Virus record (IMG/VR): IMGVR_UViG_3300014025_000004
Direction: 5' to 3' (one strand)
Source of the DNA: a virus
DNA: 51,509 nucleotides
This document shows, piece after piece, positions 11,411-51,509 of this stretch. Under the pieces are notes generated by a model. The model worked only from the letters and a program-made list of their open reading frames with translations, searched no databases and had not been told where the DNA came from. A program made the position numbers and the translations under genes. Position 1 is the first letter of the stretch; the number at the start of each line of letters is the position of its first letter.

Positions 11411-11432
11411 CTTTTTAGTGATTAACGATTAG

Positions 11433-11470
11433 TGATTAGTGGTTAGCCACTTGTCACTAACCACTAATCA
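11433..11470 (-). other. 14-bp perfect-stem hairpin between the tail tube and chaperone genes
   Basis: tgattagtggttag (11433-11446) pairs with ctaaccactaatca (11457-11470), with a 10-nt loop. No U-tract follows. Confidence 0.6.
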
Positions 11471-15009: not shown

Positions 15010-15032
15010 CTTTTTTAATGATTAGTGGTTTG

Positions 15033-15698
15033 TCACTTGTTACTTGTCGTTAGTTTCTCGGTTTCTTGCTCAATGAGATTAGCAATAGCCTCCTCCTCTT
15101 TCTGTGGATCATCAGGGGTATCAGGGGCTTTGGAATAAGAAAACCCACGTGCTGAAAGCTCTTGCTCCTGCTTGCCAAAGCCCTCTGTTACGGCATTAAC
15201 TAAGGTCTCCACTGCGGAGGTATCGGCAAAATCACGCCCCACGAGCGAAGGAGAATAGTAGCTTTCTGGGATATTCTTTTCTCTCATCAGCCTTACGAAT
15301 TGCTCCTTGAGGCTTTCGGCTGTTTTGCCTTTTTGGAACTCGGCAAAGCTATTTTGCAAGGTATTGAGTTTCTCAATAATTGCACTCATTTCAGCATTGC
15401 CCTGATTAACCGCAGATGTAGCGGGAGTAGGTTCGTTGCTTTTCTCTGCTTTTGCCTTCCAATCGTCCGCTTCCTTCTTGTACTTCTCACTTTCAGCCCT
15501 GAAAGTATTGACCCGATTATCAGCATAAGATTGGAACAACTTAAGCATAGCCTCAGCCCCCGCAGTGGCAGGTTCTACTTGGCTTTCTTCTATTACGTAA
15601 GCACTCAAGTTAGCCGCCACTCCCTCAAGTACTTGCCCGCTCAACCCTAAGTGATTGTACTTAGTTTTGAGTAATTGTAGAATTTTTTCTTTGAACAT
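15033..15698 (-). CDS. Scaffolding protein (putative)
   Basis: 221 aa, acidic and helical/coiled-coil-like. Lies upstream of the capsid gene. Confidence 0.5.
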   Translation of the reverse strand: MFKEKILQLLKTKYNHLGLSGQVLEGVAANLSAYVIEESQVEPATAGAEAMLKLFQSYADNRVNTFRAESEKYKKEADDWKAKAEKSNEPTPATSAVNQGNAEMSAIIEKLNTLQNSFAEFQKGKTAESLKEQFVRLMREKNIPESYYSPSLVGRDFADTSAVETLVNAVTEGFGKQEQELSARGFSYSKAPDTPDDPQKEEEAIANLIEQETEKLTTSNK

Positions 15699-15720
15699 AA
15701 AAAAACGATATTATTATATG

Positions 15721-15798
15721 CAAAGGTACGCAAGGGCTTGTAAATAAGCTCTATAGTGGTTTGTGTAATGTTTGTATTTTCTTTGTGTTTTTTTTGTT
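15721..15798 (-). promoter_or_regulatory. Bipartite late-type promoter: -7 box TACCTTTG plus conserved upstream 28-mer
   Basis: Plus-strand caaaggta at 15721-15728, a 42-nt spacer, then the 28-mer tttgtattttctttgtgttttttttgtt at 15771-15798. The same architecture occurs at 28653-28730. Confidence 0.5.
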
Positions 15799-15865
15799 TT
15801 TTTACTTATCTTTTCTATTAAGAAAAGTTTAACCACATCAAAGAGTAAAAAAGTAATATATTTTA

Positions 15866-17858: not shown

Positions 17859-17892
17859 ATTTTTTCAGTGATTAAGGGTTCATCATTTGTCG

Positions 17893-19281
17893 TTAGTCAC
17901 TAAACACGTCTTTTCCTTTTTCTTTCTCTATTTGGGCAAGTTCTTCATCTATCTTGTCGGTAATACCTGCCAATATAATCCCCTCTTTGAGTGAGGCTAC
18001 TCCTCCTTGTACTGCACTAACAGCATCAGCTATACGTTCGGTAAGGCTGTCTATCATATAAGGGACAATCTCTATATTGACTTGTAGCCGTTTAGCCACT
18101 GGGGCATACTTAGGGATAAGACTGCCAATGGCTGATAGGAGGAAGTTAATACGGCGCTGTAAAAACTCTTCTATGGTTTCGGCATGGTTACTTACTGCCA
18201 TGTGTGTCCCCATAAACATAAACTTAAAAGCCTTCCCACTCAAGGTATTTCCGAGACCCTGCAAGGCTTCAAAGGTGATTTGAGGGGTGTTAGTAAGGGC
18301 ATAACAACGAGAGGTAAGGTTATCAAACTCTAACTTAGCCATATCTGGGGACTGTTGCCAAGTGAGGTAGGATACTTGAGCATCGTTTTCGAGTTGGATT
18401 ATCTCACTTGTCATTCCTTTATTACGTACGCCTACAACTTCACCCGAAGCAACCATTTTCGGATAGAAATTGTAGTCAAGGCAATCGGCAAAGTTGGATA
18501 GAAGTACTTCCAAGCGATTGCGAAGGGTGCGTATCTTATCACACAATGGGCGTTCCCTCTTCATATAGATAACAGGGATCTTGGAAAATCCGTGTGGGTA
18601 CTGCTCTATTTGGGTGCCATTGCTATAGATGGTTACATTTTGGTTATCCACTACCATAAGACGAGTGGATTGTATGCCTTTGCTATCAGTTTTGTTGTAC
18701 TCACGAGAGAAAGCAATCAAATCACCATACTCATCATAGTAAGGATAGAGTGTATCCCCACGGAAAGGCGACCAAATCATAGACTTAAGCCTATAGGTAG
18801 GGTTAGGATCATCCTCTTTGGCGGGTTTTACATACCAATATTCGGCTACCTCACACTCTGCAAACCACGAACGCACCAGGCGCTTGTTATCATAAGGGAG
18901 TTTGTTCTTTTGATGAATGCCGTCGAGCAGCTCCATAAGCTCCTGTTCAGCAGCTTCGGTAGCGTTGGCTGTGATTTTAGGGGGTGTGCCTACTGTAAAT
19001 GCAGTATGTATATTGACGATGTCCTGCTCTAAGGGTAAAGCCATACGATTGACATCCTCCCACTTGAATTGAGCAGGAGACTTGATAGTGCCATCTTTGT
19101 TTTCTTCTTGTTCTTTGACGAGCACCCTTCGCTTTGGGCGTAATTCCTCATCAAAAACATCGTGTTGGGTATAATCCCAATCCTTGATAAGCGATTGTGT
19201 ATCGGGGCGCTTGGCTGGGTATTTCTTGAGTTGGGTGATACGCTCGCTTTCAGGGAGGGCGTTTAGTTCTTGTAGTGTCAT
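17893..19281 (-). CDS. Portal protein
   Basis: 462 aa. Size and position immediately upstream of the MuF-like gene. Confidence 0.75.
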   Translation of the reverse strand: MTLQELNALPESERITQLKKYPAKRPDTQSLIKDWDYTQHDVFDEELRPKRRVLVKEQEENKDGTIKSPAQFKWEDVNRMALPLEQDIVNIHTAFTVGTPPKITANATEAAEQELMELLDGIHQKNKLPYDNKRLVRSWFAECEVAEYWYVKPAKEDDPNPTYRLKSMIWSPFRGDTLYPYYDEYGDLIAFSREYNKTDSKGIQSTRLMVVDNQNVTIYSNGTQIEQYPHGFSKIPVIYMKRERPLCDKIRTLRNRLEVLLSNFADCLDYNFYPKMVASGEVVGVRNKGMTSEIIQLENDAQVSYLTWQQSPDMAKLEFDNLTSRCYALTNTPQITFEALQGLGNTLSGKAFKFMFMGTHMAVSNHAETIEEFLQRRINFLLSAIGSLIPKYAPVAKRLQVNIEIVPYMIDSLTERIADAVSAVQGGVASLKEGIILAGITDKIDEELAQIEKEKGKDVFSD

Positions 19282-19319
19282 TGCTAATTAACGGTTAGTT
19301 GTTAGTCATTAGTCGTTGG

Positions 19320-19989: not shown

Positions 19990-22900
19990 TTACACATACT
20001 CTACATTGGTTATTATTCCGTCTGTTATATACATCTTAACATAACCAAAGGTAGTGTTTATTACATGCCACCCTGTATATCCTTTTTGTCCTTTTATATA
20101 TACGTCTCCTTTTCTAATATCAATAGCTACAGAACCGCTTGCCCCATTTTCCGACTCTAATACAAGAGCTGCATTATAACGCCCTCCTCTACTTGTTAGG
20201 TGTAAGGCTGTATGAGAAGTGTCTTCAAATCCTGATGAATATATACTGGCAACAGATCTTGTTCCTACTAATTCCTGCAATTGACCAGGGTCGTTTATAA
20301 TTACTTGTGTGGATCTATTTGTAGCACTTCCAAAAGCCTTTATGATTCCATTTGAGGCAACAGTAAGTCCATTTGCAATTAAGCTGGTATCACTTGCGCT
20401 TTCTATTTTAAAGTTCCCTATCTGACCTTTTGAAGCATACAAACTACCGTCTTGTAGCACTCTATAGGGGGCGTCATACCTACCACCAAACTCACTACCT
20501 GCCCAAAAGCGTACTTCGTTAGTAGCATTTCCTACCCCAGTGATACCCGCTTGCGTTCCTGTGGTGTTACCTACAATCATCGTACCAGTGGCTACCACGT
20601 TGCCTGCTATCTGTGTGTCGTTAAGGAAAGCAGTCTTTTGGTCAAGTTTGCCGATACGCTCATCAGTTTTAGCCTTGTTTTTATTTTCTAAATCTTCAAT
20701 TCTTTCGGCGTTTCTTCGGATAGTCTCTAAATCGGAATTGATATTAGCGATTTGGTTTTCTACATCTTCAGGAGCAGGTGACCAGTCAGTAGGCTTGTTA
20801 CCGCGTTCGAGCTTAATCCATTCTATGGTGCTATCAACAACAATATTAGACGGATAAACCCATATAGTTAATACTCTTTTATCTCCTATTCCATTTTTGA
20901 AATTAAATGTATTTTGATAAATCCCATTTCCTTTATTAAAAAGAGACGTTTGTTCTACATTTCCGAATTGGTCATATAAAGCAAAAGCTGTTTTACCAAC
21001 TCCTAATTGACCCTTGATAGTCATTGTAAGTAAATCACCTTCATTTAACACCTCTGTCAAGCGATATGTGGCTATACAATAATTACTATTGGTTGATCTC
21101 CAATTACTATTATATAATAAATTCTTACCTCCAATATTCAACTCATTTACTTTCTGCTCTGCGTGTGTTTTAGCGATTTGCAAGTTCCGTTGCGCTTCTT
21201 GAATACGTGCTTGTTGCTCGGCTGTTATAGCTAATCCAGCATTACGATTGGCTTCTGCTATGGCTTGTAATTTGAGTAAATCCGCTTGTGCTCGTGCGTA
21301 GGCTTCTGTAGCACTTTTGGCATTAGCAACCGCTTGTTCTCGGTTTTGTTTTTCTTGGTTTATTTCACTTTCTAAGTCCTCAGGAGCAGGTGACCAATCG
21401 GTGGCTTTGTTACCTCGTTCGAGTTTAATCCATTCTATGGTGCTTTCAGCTATAACATTAGAATTATAAGTCCAAATCCAAAGTGTTTTATTGTCCGAAA
21501 CACTATATTGATTTCTTGTTCTCCAAACAAATGTATTTTGATGAATATTATTACCTTTATTGTAAAGTTGAGATAACTCAAGAAAATCACCACTATTATA
21601 AGCAGCAAAAACTAACTTGCCAGCTCCTAAATGGCCTTTAATTGTCAAGGTTACAACATCTCCATCTCTTAATTCCTCCGTTAAATGGTATGTAGCTATA
21701 TTATAATTGCTATTGGTTATTCTTTGCTTACTGTTACGTAATAAATTCTTGCCGCCCACTTGTATATTATTCGTCTGCTCGTTAGAGTACTGCTTTAACC
21801 TACTCTCCAATGACTGCAAATCAGGATTAACGAGCTGCTTAAACTCTAATTTGTTGCTTTCTGAGATTTGGAGGTGTGCGTTTATCTCTATACGATCGTC
21901 GTATAGGGCTATAAACTGCTGTCCATTACCTGAAGCTATACGGTTGGTTACCATTTGCCCGCCTGTAATCTCGGTAAAGCCATTGAGTTGGGCTATTCCT
22001 CGCTCGCCGTCGTACTCTGAATTGACTGTGGCATATAGAAAGTGGTAAAATCCTGCTTCTTGCTCCATGCCTATCTTGGTTTCGGAGAGGACAAACTCGG
22101 CTGTCTCTATAGCCTTATTGGCCTTGATGTAGAGGTAATAGCTCTTTGCCTTATCATCTAATCTACCTGACACAAATTGAGAAACATACCAATACTTATA
22201 ATCAGCCGCGGAGTGACTTGGTTTGATGTCTGTGGCGCCAAGGGTGTAATGCTTGATCCAACCACTACCTGCATTGATTTGCTTGTTGTTCCTATCAAAG
22301 TATAGGGTATGAGGCACAGTGATAGGGTTGGTCTTATTGGCAACAAAAGCAAATTGTCCTGATTTGTTACCTACTAAGGCCATCATCGTTTGCACTGTGG
22401 CAGGAATGATACTTTGGGTATATTCAGGAAAGGCTTCTTCTACCTGCTTGATAGTCTCTAAGGCGTTACGCCAACTGCGTTTGGTTAGTGATTGTGTGTG
22501 TTTGTTCATCTCTCCAAAATACACCTCTTGATTTTGGAGTTTGCGTATTTCAGAGGAAAAGGATTGCCCTTGTACCTTGTTGGATAACTCTATTTGGGGG
22601 CTGTAAGGGTTATTGACATACTCTTTAAGCCCCACAATACGAATAGCCACGGAGGTACGTTGAAACTCATTGTCTGAAAAGTGGATATATCCTCCCATTT
22701 TGAGCCGTCCGCCTACATTGACCCATCGCTTTTTTGCCCATATTCCGTCCAAATCACCAGTAAAGGTAAATAGGTCTGCTCGGTTTTCATACAGATACTT
22801 ACATGCTTCCTTCATCATCTCCCAACTGGCGCCAGTTTTGGTGTCATTGTCGCAAATATAAGCAGCAGGTAAGTGCATGTTATATACAGAATATTGGTCT

Positions 22901-23979
22901 CCTATAGCAGGTTTAAATATATCATTCGGCATGGTAGTGCCGTCTTCTTCCTTGGGGACAAGCTGAAATTGTTTTTGGGTGTGGTCGTACTTTGATACTT
23001 CAAACTCACGCCCTGATAACATACCACTTTCAAAGTATATCACCATCTTTTCCCCTTTGATTTGGAGGTCGGCAAAGTTCAACGCTTCAGGTATGGAGGT
23101 ATCAGCAAAGTCGTAGAAGTGTTTGTCGTGATCCACTTCAAAAACGGCTGATATAGTCCCTTTGCGACTTGGGTATATATGGGAAAGGTCAAGGCTTTGT
23201 TCGTTGATAAAGCCGTTGTTTGGCGCATTCTTGATAGCTATAGACAGCCCTTTGTCATCTGAAACAAAGGTTACCCCTTCATATACATACTCTTGTGATT
23301 TGGGTAGTAATAATTCCTTGTTGCCGTACTTGGAGCGGTCAATATTACGTTCTCCTCCTTGTACATAGAGGCGAGTAATACGACTTTGCTCGGTAGTGCG
23401 GCTTACCCCTGTCTTAAAGCCTTTGCCTTTGCCATATTGGAGCGGCAGCGGATTGTCTTTGAAATATTCTACCTTGTGGAGGTGTATCGTTTTACCTATA
23501 ATCTCGTATTCTGTCTCAAAGGCTTTGGCGATCATGTCCAATGCTTCCAAGCAGTTGTTATGGTTATAGCTGATGAGCTTTTCATTAGCTTCAATCGTGG
23601 TTCCTACCTGCCAGCCGCTGTCTATCATATTGAGACAATCTACCAATATTTGTATATGGTAGTGAGGGGAAGCGGTGAAAGGAAACTTGAGGGTCTTATC
23701 ATTGGGGTTGCGAAACTTGTAATTCTTCAGGTTTGCCCCCTCGCTGTCCATGGTAAGGGTATATTCAAAATGTCTGCTGTTATGCTTCACCACTTTAGCA
23801 GGCTGATTAAGGGTATAACGTTCCCCCTGAAACTCACACCATGCCCCAGTAGGGATTTCAGTGTAAGTAGATAGGGCAAAGTATAGGTTCAGCGTATGCT
23901 CCCCCATAATGGAGCGGTATCGGTAGCTCTCATCGGTAGGAAGGATGTCTATATAGGTGCTGTTAAAGTGTAGTTGCAT
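19990..23979 (-). CDS. Tail tip / host-recognition protein (Tal-like N-terminus, two inserted receptor-binding-type modules, fibre-like C-terminus)
   Basis: 1329 aa. Two copies of ..IEWIKLERGNK(A/P)TDWSPAPED.. separated by a coiled coil. Gly/Thr-rich C-terminal region. Confidence 0.75.
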   Translation of the reverse strand: MQLHFNSTYIDILPTDESYRYRSIMGEHTLNLYFALSTYTEIPTGAWCEFQGERYTLNQPAKVVKHNSRHFEYTLTMDSEGANLKNYKFRNPNDKTLKFPFTASPHYHIQILVDCLNMIDSGWQVGTTIEANEKLISYNHNNCLEALDMIAKAFETEYEIIGKTIHLHKVEYFKDNPLPLQYGKGKGFKTGVSRTTEQSRITRLYVQGGERNIDRSKYGNKELLLPKSQEYVYEGVTFVSDDKGLSIAIKNAPNNGFINEQSLDLSHIYPSRKGTISAVFEVDHDKHFYDFADTSIPEALNFADLQIKGEKMVIYFESGMLSGREFEVSKYDHTQKQFQLVPKEEDGTTMPNDIFKPAIGDQYSVYNMHLPAAYICDNDTKTGASWEMMKEACKYLYENRADLFTFTGDLDGIWAKKRWVNVGGRLKMGGYIHFSDNEFQRTSVAIRIVGLKEYVNNPYSPQIELSNKVQGQSFSSEIRKLQNQEVYFGEMNKHTQSLTKRSWRNALETIKQVEEAFPEYTQSIIPATVQTMMALVGNKSGQFAFVANKTNPITVPHTLYFDRNNKQINAGSGWIKHYTLGATDIKPSHSAADYKYWYVSQFVSGRLDDKAKSYYLYIKANKAIETAEFVLSETKIGMEQEAGFYHFLYATVNSEYDGERGIAQLNGFTEITGGQMVTNRIASGNGQQFIALYDDRIEINAHLQISESNKLEFKQLVNPDLQSLESRLKQYSNEQTNNIQVGGKNLLRNSKQRITNSNYNIATYHLTEELRDGDVVTLTIKGHLGAGKLVFAAYNSGDFLELSQLYNKGNNIHQNTFVWRTRNQYSVSDNKTLWIWTYNSNVIAESTIEWIKLERGNKATDWSPAPEDLESEINQEKQNREQAVANAKSATEAYARAQADLLKLQAIAEANRNAGLAITAEQQARIQEAQRNLQIAKTHAEQKVNELNIGGKNLLYNSNWRSTNSNYCIATYRLTEVLNEGDLLTMTIKGQLGVGKTAFALYDQFGNVEQTSLFNKGNGIYQNTFNFKNGIGDKRVLTIWVYPSNIVVDSTIEWIKLERGNKPTDWSPAPEDVENQIANINSDLETIRRNAERIEDLENKNKAKTDERIGKLDQKTAFLNDTQIAGNVVATGTMIVGNTTGTQAGITGVGNATNEVRFWAGSEFGGRYDAPYRVLQDGSLYASKGQIGNFKIESASDTSLIANGLTVASNGIIKAFGSATNRSTQVIINDPGQLQELVGTRSVASIYSSGFEDTSHTALHLTSRGGRYNAALVLESENGASGSVAIDIRKGDVYIKGQKGYTGWHVINTTFGYVKMYITDGIITNVEYV
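20765..21140 (-). repeat. Intragenic module copy B (about 125 aa) in the Tal-like gene
   Basis: NIGGKNLLYNSNWRSTNSNYCIATYRLTE...IEWIKLERGNKPTDWSPAPED. Confidence 0.8.
21377..21768 (-). repeat. Intragenic module copy A (about 130 aa) in the Tal-like gene
   Basis: IQVGGKNLLRNSKQRITNSNYNIATYHLTE...IEWIKLERGNKATDWSPAPED. About half the residues are identical to copy B. Confidence 0.8.
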
Positions 23980-23984
23980 AGTTG

Positions 23985-24776
23985 TTAGATAATTGTTAGT
24001 TGTAAATCAAACTTGACCCATATAAGCGGGTCATCAATATATAGTTCGGTAATTTTGCTGTCTTTATAGATACACTTGTAGGATTTCCCTTGATAGCTTA
24101 GGGTTCGTTCGTCTGGTCTTACAAGGTCATACAGTAAGGCAAAATATCCTTTGATAAAATCAGTTATCGGCAAATACATAAAGCATTTGAGCGTTGCGGT
24201 GCGTTCCTGAAAGTATATAGGTACATCGGCAGCTATAAGACCACTCATAGTACTATTTTGAGCTGTATAAGGTGTTTTGGCATTACCTGCTGTGATAAGC
24301 TCTTGTTGTGTCCCCTCCAATAGGGTTATACCATAATGGGTTAGGTTTTTGCTATCAATATAGGCTTCTACATTATGAGCGGTGAGCGTTGGTGCTTGAT
24401 AGGTATATCCTTGTAAGGGAGTATCATCTGAAAGACGAATATCAGCTGTTACATAACCTCCAATGACTTGGGTTTTACTAAGACCAACCAATCGCAAGCG
24501 GTAGGTTTGGTTAATAAAGTCAAAGGTATAATTAGCATAGGCACGAACTGAAAGGAGCGTTACCAAATTGGGATATAGACTTTCAGGCAATAACAGCTGT
24601 AGAGTAATTTCCTTAGCAGATAGCTGCGGGGCTGAAAGATCATATTCCGAGCCGCTTTCCTCTGCCCAGTCATTTTTGTTCAAAGACTTCAAGGCTGGAT
24701 AGGATAGCAAGCTCGCTAATGAACCCTCTACCAACTTAGCATGTAAGGTCTGTATGTCTGTACCGTTGATTTTCAT
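23985..24776 (-). CDS. Distal tail protein (Dit)-like
   Basis: 263 aa, directly upstream of the Tal-like gene. N-terminus MKINGTDIQTL... is typical in style of sipho-tail proteins. Confidence 0.5.
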   Translation of the reverse strand: MKINGTDIQTLHAKLVEGSLASLLSYPALKSLNKNDWAEESGSEYDLSAPQLSAKEITLQLLLPESLYPNLVTLLSVRAYANYTFDFINQTYRLRLVGLSKTQVIGGYVTADIRLSDDTPLQGYTYQAPTLTAHNVEAYIDSKNLTHYGITLLEGTQQELITAGNAKTPYTAQNSTMSGLIAADVPIYFQERTATLKCFMYLPITDFIKGYFALLYDLVRPDERTLSYQGKSYKCIYKDSKITELYIDDPLIWVKFDLQLTII

Positions 24777-24810
24777 TAGGTATTAGTCGTTAGTCGCTCG
24801 TCATTAGTCA

Positions 24811-28587: not shown

Positions 28588-28652
28588 TTATTACCTTGTA
28601 TTAAGTTGCAATATTATTTCAAAGACCCTGTATATACCCTTGGTATATAGGG

Positions 28653-28730
28653 CAAAGGTACGACATGGCTCGCAAAGGGCTGCTATACTCGTTTGTTTTT
28701 TCTTTGTATTTTCTTTGTGTTTTTTTTGTT
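28653..28730 (-). promoter_or_regulatory. Second copy of the bipartite late-type promoter
   Basis: caaaggta at 28653-28660, a 42-nt spacer, and an identical 28-mer at 28703-28730. Confidence 0.5.
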
Positions 28731-28789
28731 CTGATACATCTGCAAAGATACGAAAAATAATTTTAACCGCTTTAAAAACGAGGGGCTTT

Positions 28790-30078: not shown

Positions 30079-30114
30079 AATAATTTGATCTAAAAGGTTA
30101 TTAAATTGAGTTTA

Positions 30115-30143
30115 AAAGCAGTTTAAAGACTTGCTTAGGTCTG
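30115..30143 (-). repeat. 29-nt intercistronic repeat, copy 1
   Basis: aaagcagtttaaagacttgcttaggtctg. It starts 7 nt after the stop of the upstream small gene. Confidence 0.8.
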
Positions 30144-30364: not shown

Positions 30365-30393
30365 AAAGCAGTTTATAGACTTGCTTAGGTCTG
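30365..30393 (-). repeat. 29-nt intercistronic repeat, copy 2 (1 mismatch)
   Basis: aaagcagtttatagacttgcttaggtctg. Same position relative to the preceding stop codon. Confidence 0.8.
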
Positions 30394-38745: not shown

Positions 38746-39621
38746 TTAAAATAATTTAGGTTGCATTTTATCAGCAATCATACGCTTGAGATTGCGCTGC
38801 ATTTGATTGTAATAGGACTCCTTAAGCTCTATTCCTATATAGTTACGATTAAGCCTTAGACTTTCATACCCTTCACTTCCTATTCCTCCAAAAGGACTTA
38901 GTACTGTCTCACCCTCGTTGCTCCACAAATGCAAGCAACGCCTGATCGTTTCTAGCTGTAAGGGACAAATATGCTTCTCGTCTTTCTCCTCACGAGCAGA
39001 GGTATATTGCAAGGTATCGGAGTAGTTGATGTCATACCACACTGGCTCGGCATACTTTTGCCACAAATTCACGGGGAGGTAATTTTCTTTTTTCTCATCA
39101 GTGGCTTGGTGGGTGATTGGTACTAAGTTATCACCCGCATTGCGAAAGACTAAGATGTAATCAGGGATCCCAGTGCGAGACATACTGCTGTCTTTTAAGA
39201 TTGTTTTATGAAGCAACCCTATTGATTTGGTTCTTGTTACTTCTACTACAGGGCTTTTCCATATTGTGATCCTATCGTGGTAAATAAACCCTTCCTTCTC
39301 AAAAGCCTGAATGAGCATACCTGAAAAGTATTTGAGTCCTATATATCCGTCTTTCACTTTCATTGCTGGCAAGTCCATACAATGCACTGCTACCAATCGT
39401 CCGCTTTTAATTACCCTTGCTAATTCTTTTACAAGGAATTGAAAATGTACAAAGAACTCCTCATAATCTTTGCAGTTACCCATGTCTCGTATATCGTCTG
39501 AATAAACATACAATTCAGCAAAAGGAGGGCTAAATATTGAAAAGTCAATGCTGTTATCAGGGAGTTTAGCTACCTCCTCTACGCAATCGCCGTGTATAGC
39601 TGTGAATTTTGGTTGTTCCAT
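38746..39621 (-). CDS. DNA methyltransferase, beta-class N6-adenine or N4-cytosine
   Basis: 291 aa. FSIFSPPFAELY (motif IV, SPPF) precedes LSPFGGIGSEGYES (motif I). Confidence 0.8.
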   Translation of the reverse strand: MEQPKFTAIHGDCVEEVAKLPDNSIDFSIFSPPFAELYVYSDDIRDMGNCKDYEEFFVHFQFLVKELARVIKSGRLVAVHCMDLPAMKVKDGYIGLKYFSGMLIQAFEKEGFIYHDRITIWKSPVVEVTRTKSIGLLHKTILKDSSMSRTGIPDYILVFRNAGDNLVPITHQATDEKKENYLPVNLWQKYAEPVWYDINYSDTLQYTSAREEKDEKHICPLQLETIRRCLHLWSNEGETVLSPFGGIGSEGYESLRLNRNYIGIELKESYYNQMQRNLKRMIADKMQPKLF

Positions 39622-40877
39622 AGTGTCTGGTTATTAATCATTAATTGTTGCATTTGTTTGAATTGTTTCTCTTTCTCTTTGATGATACTAATGACATTCT
39701 GCATAGTATCAGTGGTTACAATATTAACCATTACATCTCCTTTCTTTCCGAAGCGGTGGGATCGTCTCACAGCTTGGTAAAACCCCTCAAAAGAAAAGTC
39801 AGGGCTCATGAAAGTTTGATTAAGGCAGTGCTGAAAGTTCAATCCGTATTGGGCTATCTTAGGTTTAGTAACTAATACTCTGAACTTCCCATCTACAAAG
39901 TCTAACAACTTTTGTGCTTTCTCTTCAGGCTTATCACTTCCTGAGACTTCCACCGCTCCACGAATACCCGCAGTAACTTCTTTCCCCTCGTCATTATGTT
40001 TCACCCATACAATGTGTGGTTCCTCATTCGCATTAGCTATCTCTATTGCCTTTGCTATTCGTTGCTCTTTGGTTCGTCTTAACTCCTTGTTGAAGTCAGT
40101 AGCTGATACAGCCAAATTAGGAAATAACATACCATTGCTAAAGTCATTTTCAGTGATGATTTGGTGTTCCTTGTAAATTACATCGGATAAGTCATACCCT
40201 TGCATTGGGTAACCTATATCCGCGGGATTGGTAAGCATTATCGCCCATTCTGATACGAACTGATAGAACTTCTCAATTGCATGCCCTTTCAATCTCCATT
40301 TACTCGTGTGGTCTTGGTCATTGATGAAGTAGGTAGCAAGCATTCCTAACCTACTTTGATAACCTAAAAACTCTGAATGGTTAGCAAGCTCCATAGGATC
40401 ATTAGGAGAGGGAGTAGCTGTAAAAGCAAACTTGTAAGGGGTATTATGGAAATACTCAAAGAGTTGCTGCTTTATTTTGCCTTCAAAGTTCTTCATTATT
40501 GAACTTTCATCTACTATCAGCCCCGCATACTCCAGGTGATTGATTTTGTGCAAATTCTCAAAGTTGGTGATCGTTACCTTATCAAGGTCAAACCCAAACT
40601 TTTCCGCTTCTCTTTGGGTCTGTGCTACCACTACCAAGGGAGCAAGGATTAACACAGGTTTGTTGGTGTGTCGTACGATTTGGGTAGCTGTCTCAAGCTC
40701 CATCACAGTCTTTCCTAATCCACAATCAGCAAATACAGCGTGCTTGCCCTTGCTTAGGTTATGTTCTACAATAAACTGCTGAAAAGGAAACAGCTTGTCA
40801 TTCATTGGCAAAGCGGTAAAGCCTTTATGCTCCTTTGCTTTCTGCTTTGATTTTAAAAACTCTTGATACTCGTTCAT
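39579..40877 (-). CDS. SNF2/DEAD-like superfamily 2 helicase
   Basis: 432 aa. FADCGLGKTVMELE (Walker A), LIVDESS (motif II), and a C-terminal helicase region ..RRSHRFGKKG. Confidence 0.8.
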   Translation of the reverse strand: MNEYQEFLKSKQKAKEHKGFTALPMNDKLFPFQQFIVEHNLSKGKHAVFADCGLGKTVMELETATQIVRHTNKPVLILAPLVVVAQTQREAEKFGFDLDKVTITNFENLHKINHLEYAGLIVDESSIMKNFEGKIKQQLFEYFHNTPYKFAFTATPSPNDPMELANHSEFLGYQSRLGMLATYFINDQDHTSKWRLKGHAIEKFYQFVSEWAIMLTNPADIGYPMQGYDLSDVIYKEHQIITENDFSNGMLFPNLAVSATDFNKELRRTKEQRIAKAIEIANANEEPHIVWVKHNDEGKEVTAGIRGAVEVSGSDKPEEKAQKLLDFVDGKFRVLVTKPKIAQYGLNFQHCLNQTFMSPDFSFEGFYQAVRRSHRFGKKGDVMVNIVTTDTMQNVISIIKEKEKQFKQMQQLMINNQTLWNNQNSQLYTAIA

Positions 40878-40949
40878 TTTTGATTTGAAATTAGAGATTT
40901 GATAAAGATTGCCGCGCGCTCAATCTCCTTTCAAATCGGTTGTTATAGC

Positions 40950-40989
40950 CCCCGCTCACGGCTCGAACGTGAGTGCTTGCCTATCGGGG
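40950..40989 (-). ncRNA. tRNA-like minihelix element 2 (acceptor-like 5-bp stem stacked on a T-arm-like hairpin)
   Basis: The minus strand reads CCCCG-ATAGGCAAGCA-CTCACG-TTCGAGC-CGTGAG-CGGGG. An upstream hairpin CATGTC-TAA-GACATG lies at about 40994-41008. Confidence 0.4.
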
Positions 40990-41037
40990 TTACCATGTCT
41001 TAGACATGAGATACATAACTTTCCAATGTTAGGTTTG

Positions 41038-41808
41038 TTAGTCGTTATCGGCTGCTTGTTCTCTTTTGCCTTTGCTTCTGTCTATATAGACATGGCAAAA
41101 TAGATGGTCAATCACAGCTTCTACTTTCATTATCTTTGCCGATAACAGTGTCATTGTATAAGGTTCAGGATTTTCCTTATCCTGCATATACTTATCAAAG
41201 AACGCAATACATAGAGGTTTGGTTTCCTCAGCATTGATAGCCTTTACTAAGAATTTATTACGAGTTGTATAACGCTCATATTTCATCTCCATCTCAGCAA
41301 TATAACAATTGACCTTTTCATCTTCTCCATTATCCTTGGTTAAGGTTACGATGTACAAATATTCTTGTTCTTTGAGGGATAACACTTCAAAATATCCTTG
41401 GTAGTGCTGTTCTATGTAGTCCGTGAGTATCTGCATAGCTACCTCTACACTATTAGCATATAGGAAGAATGTTTGTTTCTTTCCCATTACCTTTGCTACA
41501 GCTACCCATGTGGCAGCACATCCATTGACTAAGGTTGCTTGTCTTTGTATAGTACTGACTTTTACCTCAGTAATATCTCCACTTTGTAGGAAGAAATTAA
41601 TCTCCTCTAAGCTGTGATGGTCTAAGAGTGTCCCACGGTCAAAGATTATCTCTTTGCGTTCTATATTGACCAACTCCCCAGTGCTTTCATCTACGAAGTT
41701 CTCAGACCATTTTCGGTAGAGTGTCTCGGCTAAGTACTTATCCTTCATCTCAGATAGGTTGGAGGTTGTGATGATCTCCTCCTCAAAACGATTAACGGTT
41801 TCTTTCAT
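41038..41808 (-). CDS. Hypothetical protein (256 aa)
   Basis: ORF in an operon context. Confidence 0.55.
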   Translation of the reverse strand: MKETVNRFEEEIITTSNLSEMKDKYLAETLYRKWSENFVDESTGELVNIERKEIIFDRGTLLDHHSLEEINFFLQSGDITEVKVSTIQRQATLVNGCAATWVAVAKVMGKKQTFFLYANSVEVAMQILTDYIEQHYQGYFEVLSLKEQEYLYIVTLTKDNGEDEKVNCYIAEMEMKYERYTTRNKFLVKAINAEETKPLCIAFFDKYMQDKENPEPYTMTLLSAKIMKVEAVIDHLFCHVYIDRSKGKREQAADND

Positions 41809-41908
41809 TGCTTATTTTCTTTTAAATCTTGCTTATTTACTTTTTTGCATTGGTTTTTAGACAGTTAGAAATGATTTTTAACCTTGCTTAACGAGAGGTG
41901 AAAATTGC

Positions 41909-42352
41909 TTAATAATACCTCCCTTGTAAATTATTCACTTGTCTTTCTATTTCATTGAGAGAGATTAAATCATCAGGGGTTGGTAGGTATATACCCGCTT
42001 CCTTACTGGCATAGTCTCTGAAATTATCAATAGCGGTTGTCATTTCCTTTGTGTTTAAATCTGCTGTGCTCCTCCACGCTTCCCTTACCTCTCCAGTCTT
42101 GTAATTCACATATTCGGTTAGGAATATTTGCGGATTAACTAACTTCTTAAATATATCTTGTTTCACGTATTCTGGGGTCTCTCCATATTCCAATGCAAAC
42201 CACGAAAAAAGGAGATGAATGTAGTTGTTCTGTGAGTAGGTACGCTTAGGCTTCTTTTCAGTGATTTCAAAGGTCTTTTTCTTCTCAATAAGATACCCTA
42301 ACCGCTCCTTTGCTCTTTGTATATCAAACTCATTGCTTGCGTTGAAAATCAT
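41909..42352 (-). CDS. NinB/Orf-like recombination mediator (tentative)
   Basis: 147 aa. KRTYSQNNYIHLLFSWFALEYG resembles the NinB RS..QN motif region. Confidence 0.4.
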   Translation of the reverse strand: MIFNASNEFDIQRAKERLGYLIEKKKTFEITEKKPKRTYSQNNYIHLLFSWFALEYGETPEYVKQDIFKKLVNPQIFLTEYVNYKTGEVREAWRSTADLNTKEMTTAIDNFRDYASKEAGIYLPTPDDLISLNEIERQVNNLQGRYY

Positions 42353-42368
42353 ACTTTATTATCTTTGA

Positions 42369-42416
42369 AAGCAAGGCAGGACTCGAACCTGCTACTATCC
42401 CGATTGATACTTGCTT
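42369..42416 (-). ncRNA. tRNA-like minihelix element 1 (7-bp acceptor-like stem plus canonical T-arm; no D or anticodon arms)
   Basis: The minus strand reads AAGCAAG-TATCAATCGGGATAGTA-GCAGG-TTCGAGT-CCTGC-CTTGCTT. Confidence 0.5.
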
Positions 42417-42442: not shown

Positions 42443-42616
42443 CTAGCGTTCTGCCGTATTTAATGGAGGATCGTCGTCATCATCTTCATTGTCTTTTAAT
42501 AATAGATAGAGGAATATAGCCGTTACCATGGCATGAGTAGCTTTGGTATAGTCCCTTAGAATTATCAAGCTAAGGACGTTAAGGGCTAACACCAGGATGA
42601 TCATTGCTTTTGTCAT
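42443..42616 (-). CDS. Small membrane protein (57 aa) missing from the ORF track
   Basis: ATGA overlap with the stop of the 182-aa gene. MTKAMIILVLALNVLSLIILRDYTKATHAMVTAIFLYLLLKDNEDDDDDPPLNTAER has two hydrophobic segments and an acidic tail. Confidence 0.45.
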   Translation of the reverse strand: MTKAMIILVLALNVLSLIILRDYTKATHAMVTAIFLYLLLKDNEDDDDDPPLNTAER

Positions 42617-44812: not shown

Positions 44813-45679
44813 TTACAAGGTTTTAAAATCTACTTGTTTAGGACTTTCCGAAGGGGCAGGAGCAGGTGTAGGAGCTACTGGTTCTTCTTGGGCTACAACC
44901 TCAGTAGGTTCATTTTGTTCTACGATAACAGCATCTTGTACATACCTACCTGTTTGCGGATTATCTATATAACGCCCCTCACTGTCTGCTTGGTCTTTCT
45001 CTATAGCATTCTGCATCTCTACTGATAACACCCCGTAGCGATTAAGTAGGAGCTTGAGTACTGTTTTCTTTGCCATGGCATCAAATTCATTTCTCCATAC
45101 GCCTTTAAGCTCCCCCGTCTTTTTATCCATGCCACTCTGTGAGTACTTGCTTACGTGTTCTTGCACTTGCTCAAGGCTCATATATAGTGATTGCTGAAAG
45201 CCGTTTTGTAGCTCAATGTATGCCAAATAACCTATAACTTTGCCTTCAGGGTTTTCTCCAAGAAATTCAGTGTGTCCAGTGAATTTATTACGCTTAATCT
45301 CTCCTTCTCGCACCTCGCAAGTGTTAATCGTTCTGTATTGACCGCTGCGGATTGCCAACTGTATAAAGCCTTTATATCCCATTTGAAATTGAGGATGTAC
45401 TTCTTGTGTTTTCCAATCCTTGTAAGCGATAACATACGCATACCCCAAGTTCTTGTTAAGTGGCAGATTTAGGGCTGTGGCATTCAAGGCACACTTCATA
45501 AGCTCTGTATTATCACATTGCAATAGCTCTTTGTTGCTGTCTGAAAGGGCTAAGAGGTTAGATACAAATTCTGATTTTCTTGACCCTAATGTCTTTGTTA
45601 GGAAATCGGCTGTGTTAGCTTGATTGAGGAAGTTTCCTAATGTTAATTTCTTCTCTGTAGTGGTGATTGTTGTACTCAT
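44813..45679 (-). CDS. recT: RecT-family single-strand annealing protein
   Basis: 288 aa. GYAYVIAYK...QFQMGYKGFIQLAIRSGQY. Confidence 0.8.
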   Translation of the reverse strand: MSTTITTTEKKLTLGNFLNQANTADFLTKTLGSRKSEFVSNLLALSDSNKELLQCDNTELMKCALNATALNLPLNKNLGYAYVIAYKDWKTQEVHPQFQMGYKGFIQLAIRSGQYRTINTCEVREGEIKRNKFTGHTEFLGENPEGKVIGYLAYIELQNGFQQSLYMSLEQVQEHVSKYSQSGMDKKTGELKGVWRNEFDAMAKKTVLKLLLNRYGVLSVEMQNAIEKDQADSEGRYIDNPQTGRYVQDAVIVEQNEPTEVVAQEEPVAPTPAPAPSESPKQVDFKTL

Positions 45680-48257: not shown

Positions 48258-48288
48258 CAAAATTAGAACATTTCTCTGTAAAAACAAA
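48258..48288 (-). promoter_or_regulatory. Leftward (early lytic) promoter TTTG-N19-TAATTTTG
   Basis: The minus strand reads TTTGtttttacagagaaatgttcTAATTTTGCACTGTC. It lies to the right of the rightward promoter, so the two face each other. Confidence 0.55.
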
Positions 48289-48359: not shown

Positions 48360-49841
48360 ATGGTGTTGTCTAAATACATTTGGGATTTATACAAGGAAAG
48401 TAAGCAAGGGAAAGAAACTATTGATTTTTTTGAATATCATAGTGTTTTCTGGAATGATGTAAAGGTTATCAATAAGTACAATCCTATCTATGGAAAATGG
48501 ATAGAAAAAAGGGATTATGAAAGCATAATGCAACAAATAGGCGACAGCTCTCTTGATAGAAATCCTTGTTTTGATTTTAAAGACTTTTCGGAAGTAAGAA
48601 AGGAGTTTGAAACTTGCTTAGATGAGGGAATTTATTTCATATTTGATAATGATGAAAAACGCTATGTTATAGACCCCAAAGACTATGCAATTTTTCTAAA
48701 TCTGCACATAGTAATGTCTTTCTATTTTTATGCAATAGCTTATGAATATACATTCCCGTACCTATTTACATACCGATTTTTTGACTTAAACAAAATTGCA
48801 GATACCTTTAACATAGAGCTTCCAAAGCTACCTAAGAAAAGTGACTATCGCTCCCGTTGTATGTATTACATTGAGCTTTGTGAGGTGTTTTACAAGTTTA
48901 GAATAGAAAACAATCTTACCCCTAATGAATTATGTGCTTTCTTGTACGATTTTGCCCCTAACTATGTAAATAACGAAAAAACGGAAATATCTAAACCAAC
49001 TCAAGCGTGGTTCATAGGAGGGTTAATCTCAGAGGAAGAACGATTGGAAGAAGTAAAATTTTGGCAAGCAAATCCTGAAACTAAAAAAGGAGATATTTTA
49101 GTACATTATGAAACTTCTCCTATTAGTGCAATTACTCATATATGGATAGCGCAAACAGACGGAGTTGTTGATCCTTTTTTCTATTATTATGCCAATTCTT
49201 ATATAGGTGATGGAATTGAGATACCATACATAACACTAAAAGAATTAGAATCTGATGAATATTTTTCAAAACACCCTCTAATACGTAAAAAATTTCAAGG
49301 AGTAAATGGTTGGGCTATATCTAATGACGATTATTCACATTTATTGCAGTTGATAAGAAGTAAAGGGTTTGATACATCTGTGTTACCAACATTACAGGCT
49401 CCTGAACCACCTCAGGGAATTGAATTGCATAATGAAAGAGATGTGGAAGTGAAATTATTAGAATATTATCTGAACCAGATAGGATATTCTGAAAACAAAG
49501 ATTTCATAAGACAATTACCAATAAAGGCAGGTAGAGGTAACAGAATATATCCTGATTATGCCTTACATTACGACAATAAAAGAGGATACGAGAAAGCAAA
49601 GATACTTATTGAGGCTAAATATCATCTGAAAAATAATAAGGAAATAGAAGATGCATTTAAACAAGCTCGTTCCTATGCTAACTTATTAGAAAGTGAAAAG
49701 ATTATCCTTTGTGATAAGTTTGGTCTAATTATTTATCTAAAGAAAGGTTCTTTTGATAGATATAATTATGAAAAAGTATATTGGAATGATTTGCAAAATC
49801 CTGATGTCTATAACAAGTTTGTTAATATATTAAAGAAGTGA
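48360..49841 (+). CDS. Large protein with a C-terminal PD-(D/E)xK HsdR_N-type nuclease-like domain and an unknown 360-aa N-terminal region
   Basis: 493 aa. RIYPDYALHYDNKRGYEKAKILIEAKYHLKNNKEIEDAFKQARSYA gives D..E-A-K..Q..Y. Confidence 0.6.
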   Translation: MVLSKYIWDLYKESKQGKETIDFFEYHSVFWNDVKVINKYNPIYGKWIEKRDYESIMQQIGDSSLDRNPCFDFKDFSEVRKEFETCLDEGIYFIFDNDEKRYVIDPKDYAIFLNLHIVMSFYFYAIAYEYTFPYLFTYRFFDLNKIADTFNIELPKLPKKSDYRSRCMYYIELCEVFYKFRIENNLTPNELCAFLYDFAPNYVNNEKTEISKPTQAWFIGGLISEEERLEEVKFWQANPETKKGDILVHYETSPISAITHIWIAQTDGVVDPFFYYYANSYIGDGIEIPYITLKELESDEYFSKHPLIRKKFQGVNGWAISNDDYSHLLQLIRSKGFDTSVLPTLQAPEPPQGIELHNERDVEVKLLEYYLNQIGYSENKDFIRQLPIKAGRGNRIYPDYALHYDNKRGYEKAKILIEAKYHLKNNKEIEDAFKQARSYANLLESEKIILCDKFGLIIYLKKGSFDRYNYEKVYWNDLQNPDVYNKFVNILKK

Positions 49842-49982: not shown

Positions 49983-50867
49983 ATGAAAGATAATTCGGAT
50001 ACAGAACAAAATTCTGTAAAAAATAGATTGCTTGATTTCTTAAAATATAAAGGAATAAGTCAAAGTAAATTTGAGCAACAATGTGGAATATCAAATGGCT
50101 ATGTAAATAATATTCGTAAGGGAATAAAAAGCGAAATGTTTGACAAAAAAATAGCTCCTATTTTCCCAGAACTTAGCAAAACTTGGCTGTTACTTGGAGA
50201 AGGCTCCATGCTTGTCCCACAGATAGAAGAGGTTGTACCAGAGGAGGAAGAGGAAGATGATTTAGTATTATTCCTAAGAGACGAGCGCAAAGGGTATGAT
50301 ATTACCCTGACTGATATTTATGAGAAAACACGTATACCTGTAAAAACGCTTAAAGAGGTACAACAAGGTGTAACAGAACTATCCACAAAGCAAAAGAATG
50401 TTTTATCTAAGTACATAGAGGAAGCAAGGGAATACTTTCAAGAAGAGGCAATAGGAAATCCTATTGGGAAGCCTACTGGTTACTACTACCCTGAAGTATA
50501 TGCAAAAGCTGGGTTTGACATTGCTAATTTTAACCATGAAATGCAGCGTATCCCTGTATATATACCTAATTTTGGAGACGATGTTACCTTTATAAATGTG
50601 TATGGGGATAGTATGTATCCAAAATACAAAGCAGGGGATGTTATAGGAATTAAGCCTGTTGATTTCGTATATTTAGTATTCGGACATCCTTACGTGGTAG
50701 TGTTTGATAATGGAGATGTTAATATAAAGTATGTTCGCAAAGGTTCAGATGACCTTCATGTGAGTTTAGAAAGTGAGAATCCAAAATACGACCCTCGTGA
50801 ATACCCACTTAGAATTATTCGTGCTTTTTATGCTGTAAAAGGAAGTGTAAAAAAAGAGCGAATGTAA
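49983..50867 (+). CDS. CI/LexA-type repressor (N-terminal XRE HTH plus C-terminal S24 peptidase)
   Basis: 294 aa. ISQSKFEQQCGISNGYVNNIRKG is an HTH. VYGDSMYPKYKAGDVIGIKPV..IKYVRKG fits a Ser/Lys dyad region. Confidence 0.85.
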   Translation: MKDNSDTEQNSVKNRLLDFLKYKGISQSKFEQQCGISNGYVNNIRKGIKSEMFDKKIAPIFPELSKTWLLLGEGSMLVPQIEEVVPEEEEEDDLVLFLRDERKGYDITLTDIYEKTRIPVKTLKEVQQGVTELSTKQKNVLSKYIEEAREYFQEEAIGNPIGKPTGYYYPEVYAKAGFDIANFNHEMQRIPVYIPNFGDDVTFINVYGDSMYPKYKAGDVIGIKPVDFVYLVFGHPYVVVFDNGDVNIKYVRKGSDDLHVSLESENPKYDPREYPLRIIRAFYAVKGSVKKERM

Positions 50868-51436: not shown

Positions 51437-51509
51437 TCGGCTCTGAGGGTTAGGGGTTCGAAGCCTCTCGCGGTCACTAAGTGTAACACTCTTCCACTCA
51501 ATGTGTTAC
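51437..51509 (+). repeat. attR copy of the 73-bp direct repeat (carries only the partial tRNA 3' end)
   Basis: Identical to 1-73. The sequence upstream of it contains no matching 5' acceptor strand (GACCGCG). Confidence 0.9.

Follow-up and report, generated by a model that had tools for sequence, protein, structure and literature searches.

A conserved tRNA-like element without an anticodon arm, probably derived from a tRNA gene, in the early operon of Capnocytophaga phages

The window analysed here, a stretch of 51,509 nucleotides of viral DNA (IMG/VR record IMGVR_UViG_3300014025_000004), is the genome of a temperate phage, or a prophage, whose hosts belong to the mouth bacterium Capnocytophaga. 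It is bounded by a terminal 73-nt direct repeat (1-73 = 51437-51509) that contains the 3′ part of a tRNA (…AGGGGTTCGAAGCCTCTCGCGGTCA), without CCA and different from the element described below. The integrase gene (153-1322) lies beside this att repeat and a repressor-like gene occupies 49983-50867, the remaining genes being almost all on the minus strand. Early genes appear in the order RecT (44813-45679), a metallo-beta-lactamase-fold hydrolase, a DUF3127 single-stranded DNA-binding protein (SSB), two unknown ORFs, the element here called E1, NinB/Orf, the phrog_35807 ORF (41038-41808), a second element called E2, a SNF2-type helicase (39579..40877, minus strand) and a DNA methyltransferase. 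Directly upstream of E1 lies a 57-aa ORF of unassigned function (42443..42616, minus strand), and directly downstream the gene of a NinB/Orf-type recombination mediator (41909..42352, minus strand; phrog_72, E 8e-21), in such a way that E1 begins 26 nt past the stop codon of the former and ends 16 nt before the start codon of the latter. Both elements are thus found in sense orientation, within intergenic gaps of a tightly packed minus-strand early replication/recombination operon. A Bacteroidota-type promoter motif (TTTG-N-TAnnTTTG) is located at the head of this operon (48258..48288, minus strand) and none was detected near E1 or E2, suggesting that both are likely co-transcribed with the early genes. 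Among the 30 annotated ORFs of the phage, no tRNA-processing or tRNA-repair enzymes were identified.

E1 occupies positions 42416..42369 of the minus strand and reads, as sense RNA, AAGCAAG-UAUCAAUCGGGAUAGUA-GCAGG-UUCGAGU-CCUGC-CUUGCUU, 48 nt in all (as DNA, AAGCAAG / TATCAATCGGGATAGTA / GCAGG TTCGAGT CCTGC / CTTGCTT). Its sequence, perfect 7-bp stem and T arm match exactly those given in the original prediction. All on the minus strand, its parts are the 5′ acceptor strand (42416-42410), a D-arm-like hairpin UAUC-AAUCGG-GAUA (42409-42396), a GUA linker (42395-42393), the T stem (42392-42388 with 42380-42376) enclosing the T loop UUCGAGU (42387-42381), and the 3′ acceptor strand (42375-42369). 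A U at the discriminator position (42368) follows, and then a 15-nt A-rich leader, CAAAGAUAAUAAAGU, that reaches the ninB ATG at 42352-42350 (42353..42368 for the U and leader together). The acceptor-like stem, with its 7 bp all Watson-Crick, abuts the 5-bp T stem, whose loop is TTCGAGT in the DNA. The minimum-free-energy fold, whether computed for the 48-mer or for the entire 90-nt intergenic gap, consists of this closing stem (7 bp, extendable to 8 bp), a 4-bp hairpin and the 5-bp T arm; the thermodynamic z-score is modest (-1.7 to -1.9). CCA is not encoded 3′ of E1, where the stem is followed by UCAA, and the att-site tRNA fragment of the phage likewise has no encoded CCA. Where CCA is not gene-encoded, tRNA 3′ ends are matured by RNase Z and subsequent CCA addition, and the absence of CCA from the att fragment fits a host that proceeds in this way.

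When confronted with the features of tRNAs, E1 shows those of the acceptor/T-arm half, namely a 7-bp stem stacked on a 5-bp T stem, the T54-T55-C56-R57-A58 pattern, the G53-C61 pair and the GGTTCRANYCC pseudouridine-arm motif (GGTTCGAGTCC, at 42390-42380 of the minus strand). Those of a canonical decoding tRNA are missing: just 17 nt separate the acceptor from the T stem, with neither a four-arm cloverleaf nor a 7-nt anticodon loop. Nor does E1 resemble a tmRNA, its pair 3-70 being G3-C70 instead of G3.U70, and both the ARAGORN tmRNA search and Rfam being negative. ARAGORN returned 0 tRNA or tmRNA genes across the whole window, in line with the expectation of either a negative outcome or a pseudo-tRNA call. 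Rfam gave no match at gathering threshold, and its E-value mode (E<=10) produced no RF00005/tRNA match to E1; the sole match in that mode was Plastid-ycf2 on the antisense strand, at chance level (19.6 bits against a threshold of 65.7, E 0.91). With both ARAGORN and Rfam negative, the latter also in E-value mode, a true tRNA overlooked by the finders is ruled out. The proposed description of E1 as a non-decodable mimic of the tRNA top half is therefore upheld, considering that no finder calls it and that only those 17 nt lie between its stems; decoding is precluded because the anticodon arm is absent.

A strict T arm, defined by a TTCRANY loop on an all-Watson-Crick, G+C-rich 5-bp stem, was observed twice in the window, against 0.016 expected per shuffled window, and its combination with an adjacent 7-bp Watson-Crick acceptor was found in 0 of 1000 shuffles, which rules out a chance origin of E1 under strict criteria. 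Since a loose definition that allows G.U pairs and weak stems is commonplace (0.32 per window), it is the strict features that carry the weight of this argument. A simple structural scan recovered E1, E2 and the att fragments alone.

The 17-nt middle of E1 folds into a 3-4-bp hairpin, UAUC-AAUCGG-GAUA. Its loop retains GG in 97 of 98 copies but is variable at the first four positions (AAAA, AAUU, GAUU, ACUC, AAUA). The stem exhibits in these 98 copies one compensatory C-G to U-A double change together with two wobble changes. The loop aligns with the D loops AAUUGG and AUCGG that longer relatives, described below, carry in the same place; its stem begins at position 8 and the loop has just 6 nt. 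From this alignment and the GG, the hairpin is probably a vestigial D arm. The earlier view that E1 has no D arm is hence probably to be revised, and E1 is best described as a tRNA minus its anticodon arm, not as a bare acceptor/T minihelix.

E1 is present in at least 130 related contigs, and at least 119 contigs of IMG/VR contain the exact 24-mer made of the T arm and the 3′ acceptor strand. Each DNA scan had one half of E1 as its anchor, the 3′ or the 5′ one, and each half was assessed solely by the scan anchored on the other. The 5′-anchored scan, with the 3′ half left free, added further contigs and yielded 84 full copies. Among them the 3′ acceptor strand is invariant, the T stem is changed in two single copies (GCGGG/CCTGC and GCAGG/CCTGT, both G.U on the sense strand), and variation in the T loop is limited to positions 57 (G to A) and 59 (G to U). 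These two positions are the ones that vary in real tRNAs. The 98 short copies counted in the 3′-anchored scan all have the same 5′ acceptor strand; one further short copy, outside those 98, reads GAGCAAG and would form a G1.U72 wobble. Nucleotide diversity (pi) within E1 amounts to 0 in the acceptor, 0.004 in the T stem, 0.028 in the T loop and 0.049 in the 17-nt middle, where 13 of 17 sites are polymorphic and 34 of 98 copies depart from the majority sequence. Third codon positions of NinB in the same contigs show a pi of 0.184, with 32 of 50 sites polymorphic. The helices of E1 are in this way ~45-fold less polymorphic than neighbouring synonymous sites, and their 24 positions accumulate two single changes only, with pairing kept in both. 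Such a pattern indicates that the helices, together with those positions of the T loop that do not vary, are under purifying selection. Since the stem changes give G.U pairs on the sense strand only, the sense-strand RNA appears to be the selected form.

Near-identical NinB loci were found in C. gingivalis CCUG 13096 and in one Capnocytophaga MAG, whereas loci with NinB at 71-72% identity occur in C. stomatis, C. canis and one Bacteroidota MAG. Homologous loci keep the acceptor AAGCAAG/CTTGCTT and the UCAAA trailer, and their interior differs by lineage. The C. stomatis prophage carries a 75-nt cloverleaf, to which the Rfam tRNA model assigns 47 bits (its gathering score being 29); ARAGORN calls it Arg-UCU, and its anticodon loop has 8 nt. 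In C. canis, a 66-nt form displays CCCC-GAC-GGGG in place of the anticodon arm and the T stem GUGAG/CUCAC, with three pairs changed on both sides, while the T stem of a 108-nt form in the Bacteroidota MAG is GCGGG/CCCGC. A NinB-like gene in one metagenome contig has as its neighbour a canonical tRNA-Lys(UUU) whose acceptor stem is again the same. A scan of IMG/VR for forms of intermediate length gave 0 matches, and in JGI metagenomes it gave 13, of which 12 are chance matches and one is this real tRNA-Lys.

The longest form, of 114 nt, was recovered from 22 IMG/VR contigs. Between its acceptor and its T arm, which account for two of its six helices, lie a D helix, a hairpin resembling an anticodon arm (with loops of 4-6 nt), another that resembles a T arm, and one more hairpin. 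Pairing is kept in 96.7% of the cells of this form, five pairs are changed on both sides, and its covariation score of 0.156, compared with 0.076 in shuffles, was attained by 0 of 500 shuffles. Two of its loops contain UGGUU and resemble the anticodon loop of Thr-GGU. ARAGORN predicts a 75-nt tRNA-Thr(GGU) inside it, but a G-to-A change that breaks the acceptor stem of that tRNA is compensated within hairpin C, so this internal compensation rules out the tRNA-Thr as the selected fold.

Across lineages the anticodon region has been deleted, shrunk, duplicated or replaced, while the acceptor stem, the T arm and the D-loop GG persist, which is the opposite of neutral decay; the strongest covariation comes from three or four distant lineages, that within closely related phages being thin. 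The homologous 75-nt cloverleaf and the tRNA-Lys(UUU) indicate that E1 derives from a tRNA gene whose anticodon arm has since been lost. The suggestion of a degenerate phage tRNA is in consequence right as to origin, mere decay being very unlikely given the selected helices. Altogether, E1 is very probably a selected, tRNA-derived structured RNA element. Another tRNA-like RNA, the third of its kind and ~111 nt long, was found in those distant prophages; its acceptor GAAGYRG/CYRCTTC has two pairs compensated between lineages, and its alignment to the Rfam tRNA model, which includes a 40-nt insert, reaches 42.5 bits. Separately, TAAGCAAG is over-represented in the window (12 found versus 3.2 expected). 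The idea that the AAGCAAG arms are two copies of a DNA operator was dropped, as in the distant prophages that share the acceptor stem they otherwise appear only inside coding sequence.

The anticipated second top-half mimic in another intergenic gap of the same operon proved to be real. E2, at 40949..40989 on the minus strand, reads CCCCG-AUAGGCAAGCAC-UCACG-UUCGAGC-CGUGA-G-CGGGGG (as DNA, CCCCG-ATAGGCAAGCAC-TCACG-TTCGAGC-CGTGA-G-CGGGGG); in it, a linker of 12 nt joins an acceptor-like stem of 5-6 bp to a T arm of 5-6 bp. Its 86 copies come from contigs that had been fetched for E1, and hence form an unbiased sample. Two T-stem variants are changed on both sides (UUACG/CGUAA and UCACA/UGUGA), three others carry G.U pairs on the sense strand (UCGCG/CGUGA, UCACG/UGUGA and UUACG/CGUGA), and the GG and AAG of the linker are invariant. 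Within this shallow sample 93% of the cells are paired, and the covariation score of 0.077, against 0.063 in shuffles, was attained by 2 of 500. The z-score of E2 is -1.4, and the T arm is absent from the minimum-free-energy fold of E2 alone. In the same position, the C. stomatis and C. canis prophages and the MAG carry UACAAG-N15-UCGGG-UUCRAUU-CCCGA-CUUGUA, in which both stems are entirely different yet complementary and the linker again contains GG. Judged by these substitutions, E2 appears to behave like E1, as a selected top-half structure. Conservation in related phages and prophages thus extends to both elements.

The distribution of this family seems restricted. Against deposited phages, BLAST of E1 and of the 2.3-kb region retrieved nothing beyond generic similarity to T arms and a match to NinB in Riemerella phage RAP44, E1 was not matched among 50,697 deposited phage genomes, and a scan of IMG/VR for variants at T-stem position 3 (GCBGG...) produced 0 matches. 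Seven NinB-bearing loci in phages of other Flavobacteriia have no such element. NinB homologues at 57-73% identity in other phages and prophages, several of them metagenome contigs, display tight gene packing and no tRNA-like element near NinB. These distant loci suggest that the tRNA-like family is confined to Capnocytophaga-type phages.

Flanks sufficient for comparison are available for 106 copies of E1 and fall into ~21 upstream and 12 downstream context clusters, joined in 50 combinations; those of E2 amount to 64. At least 7 different genes follow E1, with their ATG 14-18 nt past it and, rarely, 27 nt. Since E1 and E2 stay constant while the flanking genes diverge, they would double as homologous-recombination junctions for module swaps. 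Considering that a conserved block of 48 nt provides enough homology for exchange, and that these phages encode RecT and NinB, such behaviour is a consequence of conservation, and we read it as a by-product and not as the selected function of E1.

Regarding that function, E1 may act as a t-element-like RNase P/RNase Z processing signal in the early mRNA, a proposal that is made tentatively and by analogy. RNase P, RNase Z, the CCA-adding enzyme, TruB and TrmA, which act on tRNAs in general, recognise the 12-bp stack of acceptor and T stems, the T loop and the GG of the D loop. What selection has retained is precisely what the tRNA-maturation enzymes of the host read, and this makes cis-acting punctuation of the mRNA the most likely mechanism. 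Being in sense orientation within a long and presumably co-transcribed early replication/recombination mRNA, E1 would retain the acceptor/T-arm stack and the elbow, with the hairpin GG contacting the T loop. RNase P would then cut at its 5′ side and RNase Z past the discriminator-position U, releasing a minihelix to which a CCA tail might be added. The upstream cistron would be uncoupled in this way from the downstream one, which would be left with a ~15-nt unstructured A-rich leader. Translation in Bacteroidota does not rely on Shine-Dalgarno-driven initiation and favours short unstructured leaders; the short A-rich leader produced by cleavage is proposed to suit it. E2 would play the same role one gene downstream. 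Processing alone leaves two features unexplained, namely that the acceptor sequence itself, beyond its pairing, is invariant where T stems have changed, and that covariation shows the additional hairpins of the 114-nt form to be maintained. Both leave room for a trans-acting role as decoy, sponge or substrate.

In its simplest version, such a role would have the released element serve as a tRNA mimic for a host factor that reads the acceptor or the elbow, be it a tRNA-targeting defence toxin, a modification enzyme or the CCA-adding enzyme, with the central domain turning over in an arms race. We consider it unlikely, even though it accommodates the five central architectures seen at one locus among close relatives with a strictly invariant acceptor sequence, the covarying extra hairpins of the 114-nt form with their two Thr-GGU-like loops, and an apparent ancestry in Lys(UUU)- and Arg(UCU)-type tRNAs, which phages often carry against anticodon nucleases. 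The 48-nt form keeps no anticodon-like loop that could act as bait for such nucleases, the annotated neighbours include no tRNA-related enzyme or identifiable anti-defence gene, and the mimic presupposes the same processing, so it adds to the processing reading without replacing it. Quite unlikely is the broader version, in which Capnocytophaga phages carry a family of non-decoding RNAs with an invariant tRNA frame and an interchangeable centre, excised by host enzymes and acting in trans. In this version, held at that same low likelihood throughout, the frame would be the acceptor, the D-loop GG and the T arm; the centre would be absent, a triloop hairpin, three hairpins or a 19-nt loop; and roles such as decoy or inhibitor of tRNA-directed immune nucleases or transferases might be filled, with the 48-nt form as the minimal member. 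Were it true, a new class of phage counter-defence or regulatory RNA would be at hand, and the invariant acceptor sequence together with the fast turnover of the middle would be explained.

The remaining alternatives deny E1 a function, an action as RNA or a tRNA-like nature. That it is a functionless decaying tRNA pseudogene, looking conserved through recent descent spread by recombination, agrees with its being tRNA-derived and non-decoding, with the close similarity of the IMG/VR copies and with the absence there of the T-stem position-3 variant. This possibility is nonetheless very unlikely, because the neighbouring gene reaches a pi of 0.18 at third positions and the middle is polymorphic at most of its sites, against two pairing-preserving changes in the helices; and because, at 71% NinB identity, the acceptor stem is perfect, the T stems are compensated and the anticodon region is lost or replaced in varied ways. 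Decay would hardly leave the top half intact five separate times, and the low polymorphism of the helices and their covariation between lineages speak against a full-length tRNA gene that is simply decaying, the outcome that had been named as fatal to the original prediction. A site acting as DNA (a secondary att, a cassette-type recombination site or a single-stranded hairpin for replication priming) is very improbable. The mosaic junction with its 50 flank combinations, the location in a replication/recombination module and the fact that 3′ parts of tRNAs are classic att cores might suggest it; however, such junctions are expected of any conserved 48-nt block in RecT-encoding phages, the G.U pairs of the stem variants exist on the sense strand only and would turn into C.A on the opposite one, and the T54-T55-C56-R57-A58 pattern and the loop GG match tertiary contacts of tRNA in RNA. 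As to the secondary att-like site once envisaged, the real attP/att repeat lies at the window ends, by the integrase, and holds a different tRNA 3′ part with no similarity to the stem of E1, which sits 9 kb away from it in the middle of an operon; E1 was rejected as an att core on these grounds. Finally, that E1 is no more than a regulatory hairpin, be it an intrinsic terminator, an attenuator or a stabiliser of an mRNA 3′ end, and resembles a T arm by coincidence seems extremely improbable: a consensus scan does flag the T arm plus CUUGCUUUCA as terminator-like, but its matches are at chance level (2 found versus 2.4 expected), the weak U tract pairs with the conserved strand on the 5′ side of the acceptor, no TTCRANY loop, conserved GG hairpin or 7-bp closing stem is required of a terminator, and the homologous loci are full tRNAs.

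Should the preferred reading of E1 as an mRNA processing signal be confirmed, Bacteroidota phages would be using host RNase P and RNase Z to shape their polycistronic mRNAs, E1 would be a natural minimal substrate for these enzymes, and it would be explained why such blocks mark module-exchange points of mosaic phage genomes. This would not be a new principle unless the trans-acting reading proved true. On the practical side, elements of this kind are overlooked by tRNA finders and will often be points where assemblers break contigs. E1 is present in a cultured lysogen, C. gingivalis CCUG 13096 (contig NZ_JAYKBW010000007.1, at 5805-5852 of the locus examined), which makes the question directly testable.

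A search of the literature did not reveal any bacteriophage operon described as punctuated by conserved tRNA minihelices that lack the anticodon arm. Processing signals in the shape of a tRNA are textbook knowledge from mitochondria and from a few long non-coding RNAs of eukaryotes. Among known systems, E1 resembles phage tRNAs and pseudo-tRNAs in its homologous locus, in sharing the acceptor stem of the Arg(UCU)-like cloverleaf and of tRNA-Lys(UUU), and in its sense orientation in an operon; it differs from them by the missing anticodon arm, the negative ARAGORN and Rfam outcomes and a selection that appears to act on the top half only. The module recognised in the tRNA-like domain of tmRNA and in the mascRNA of MALAT1 consists of acceptor stem, T arm and a D region reduced in size, the anticodon arm being missing or replaced; mascRNA is an RNase P/Z processing signal within a longer, eukaryotic RNA. 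E1 shares with both the acceptor, the T arm, the loss of the anticodon arm and, probably, the reduced D region, and departs from tmRNA in its G3-C70 pair in place of G3.U70 and in having no tag reading frame, pseudoknots or Rfam similarity. RNase P also acts on non-tRNA structures in bacterial phage and operon transcripts, as exemplified by the C4 antisense RNA of P1/P7 and by polycistronic mRNAs of E. coli. Unlike E1, none of these substrates is a minihelix of tRNA origin that carries a canonical T arm, and no C4 match to E1 was found in Rfam.

The closest analogues are the t-elements of plant mitochondria, which are tRNA-derived, bear the GGTTCRANYCC motif, lie at mRNA ends, are cleaved by RNase P/Z and receive CCA tails with no aminoacylation (Forner et al. 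2007, PMC1920247; doi 10.1101/2024.09.09.612099; see also Hanic-Joyce 1990). E1 is like them in its apparent origin from a tRNA gene, its non-canonical fold, its T-arm motif and acceptor stem, its position beside or between coding regions and its inability to decode. Unlike them, it belongs to a phage and not to an organelle, and its anticodon arm is cleanly absent from a body of 48 nt, whereas t-elements mostly keep four arms; processing, demonstrated in plants, is here proposed, and there is no sequence homology between the two. What is new is thus the finding in phage, and in a version devoid of anticodon arm and of an Rfam family, of a type already known elsewhere, that of tRNA-derived, tRNA-like cis elements.

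Both ends of the window consist of a perfect 73-nt direct repeat (1-73 and 51437-51509, plus strand) that carries a tRNA 3' portion (…AGGGGTTCGAAGCCTCTCGCGGTCA), devoid of CCA, beside the integrase ORF (153-1322, plus strand). This terminal repeat is the real att site, unless it is where the two ends of a circular genome overlap. Because the 5' part of the tRNA falls outside the window, ARAGORN called no tRNA at the fragment within the repeat.

Other repeated sequences were also found in the window. A 30-nt repeat (TTAGTGATTAGTGGTTAGCCACTTGTCACT when read on the plus strand) is present in five copies (11429-11458, 15015-15044, 17865-17894, 19288-19317 and 24776-24805), each in a short gap that is followed closely, in the sense direction, by a structural or late gene, and may be a late-gene leader or regulatory box. 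An 86-nt repeat occurs twice with 77% identity (15720-15805 and 28652-28737), each copy ending on the minus, sense strand in TACCTTTG, a Bacteroidota -7 box; both copies are likely middle or late promoters. The very large structural gene encoding a 1329-aa ORF (19990-23979) contains, in turn, an internal tandem duplication of ~620 nt (20750-21756, minus strand), comprising the repeat families D1, D2 and D14 with identities of 72-82%.

The octamer TAAGCAAG is in excess within the window, with 12 occurrences observed versus 3.2 expected, and at least 12 being reached in none of 100 shuffles. Four full or partial copies are displayed by the 100-nt gap that follows ninB (41809-41908, minus strand), two are held by a 38-nt repeat found at 30106 and 30356, and the sites outside that gap include 30130-30137, 30380-30387 and 48401-48408. 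A role as operator or iteron is possible for this octamer. The acceptor arm of E1, the 48-nt tRNA-like element without anticodon arm, is similar to it, yet no link between them was established. In related NinB-bearing phage contigs of other Flavobacteriia, the helicase gene appears either as a single 396-aa ORF or split into ResIII and Helicase_C with 47 nt in between (loci compared, L126 7247-8436 versus L128 7247-8437), a split that could be due to a small insertion, a frameshift or an error in sequencing.

The antisense strand of E1 (42367-42416, plus strand) produced a weak, non-significant Rfam match to the Plastid-ycf2 5'UTR RNA (19.6 bits, E 0.91), probably due to the tRNA-complement content of that family. 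Regarding E2, the second tRNA top-half mimic, a perfect hairpin (CATGTC-TTA-GACATG, 40994-41008) lies 4 nt upstream of it in the sense direction and is present in about half of the related contigs, while those lacking it show another conserved block at that place (…TTGTAATGTAGCCATTGTGCA).

In 22 related contigs, including L005 (2412-2526), L008, L011, L020, L031, L042, L095 and L112, the E1 locus is occupied by a 114-nt, six-helix RNA built on a tRNA frame, with covarying hairpins and anticodon-like loops of 4-6 nt, that at full length scores 32.5 bits against the Rfam tRNA model. It looks like a tRNA-Thr(GGU) whose anticodon arm, variable loop and T arm have been duplicated in tandem. The distant Capnocytophaga-type prophage loci L122 and L125 hold an additional tRNA-like RNA of ~111 nt (5660-5776 and 5706-5816, respectively) after the E1 homologue, across a conserved spacer of ~65 nt. 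The acceptor stem differs between the two loci (GAAGCGG/CCGCTTC versus GAAGTAG/CTACTTC). This RNA has a tRNA-Leu-like D arm, and its anticodon arm is replaced by a 40-65-nt insert.

The sole genuine match of the metagenome scan for intermediate-length forms of E1 was a canonical tRNA-Lys(UUU) in contig L153 (997-1069), which starts with A1-U72 and has an acceptor stem identical to that of E1. It is preceded by a NinB/Orf-like ORF and followed by a leader of the same, UCAAAAUAAA type; this tRNA-Lys(UUU) may be similar to the ancestral state of the E1 locus.
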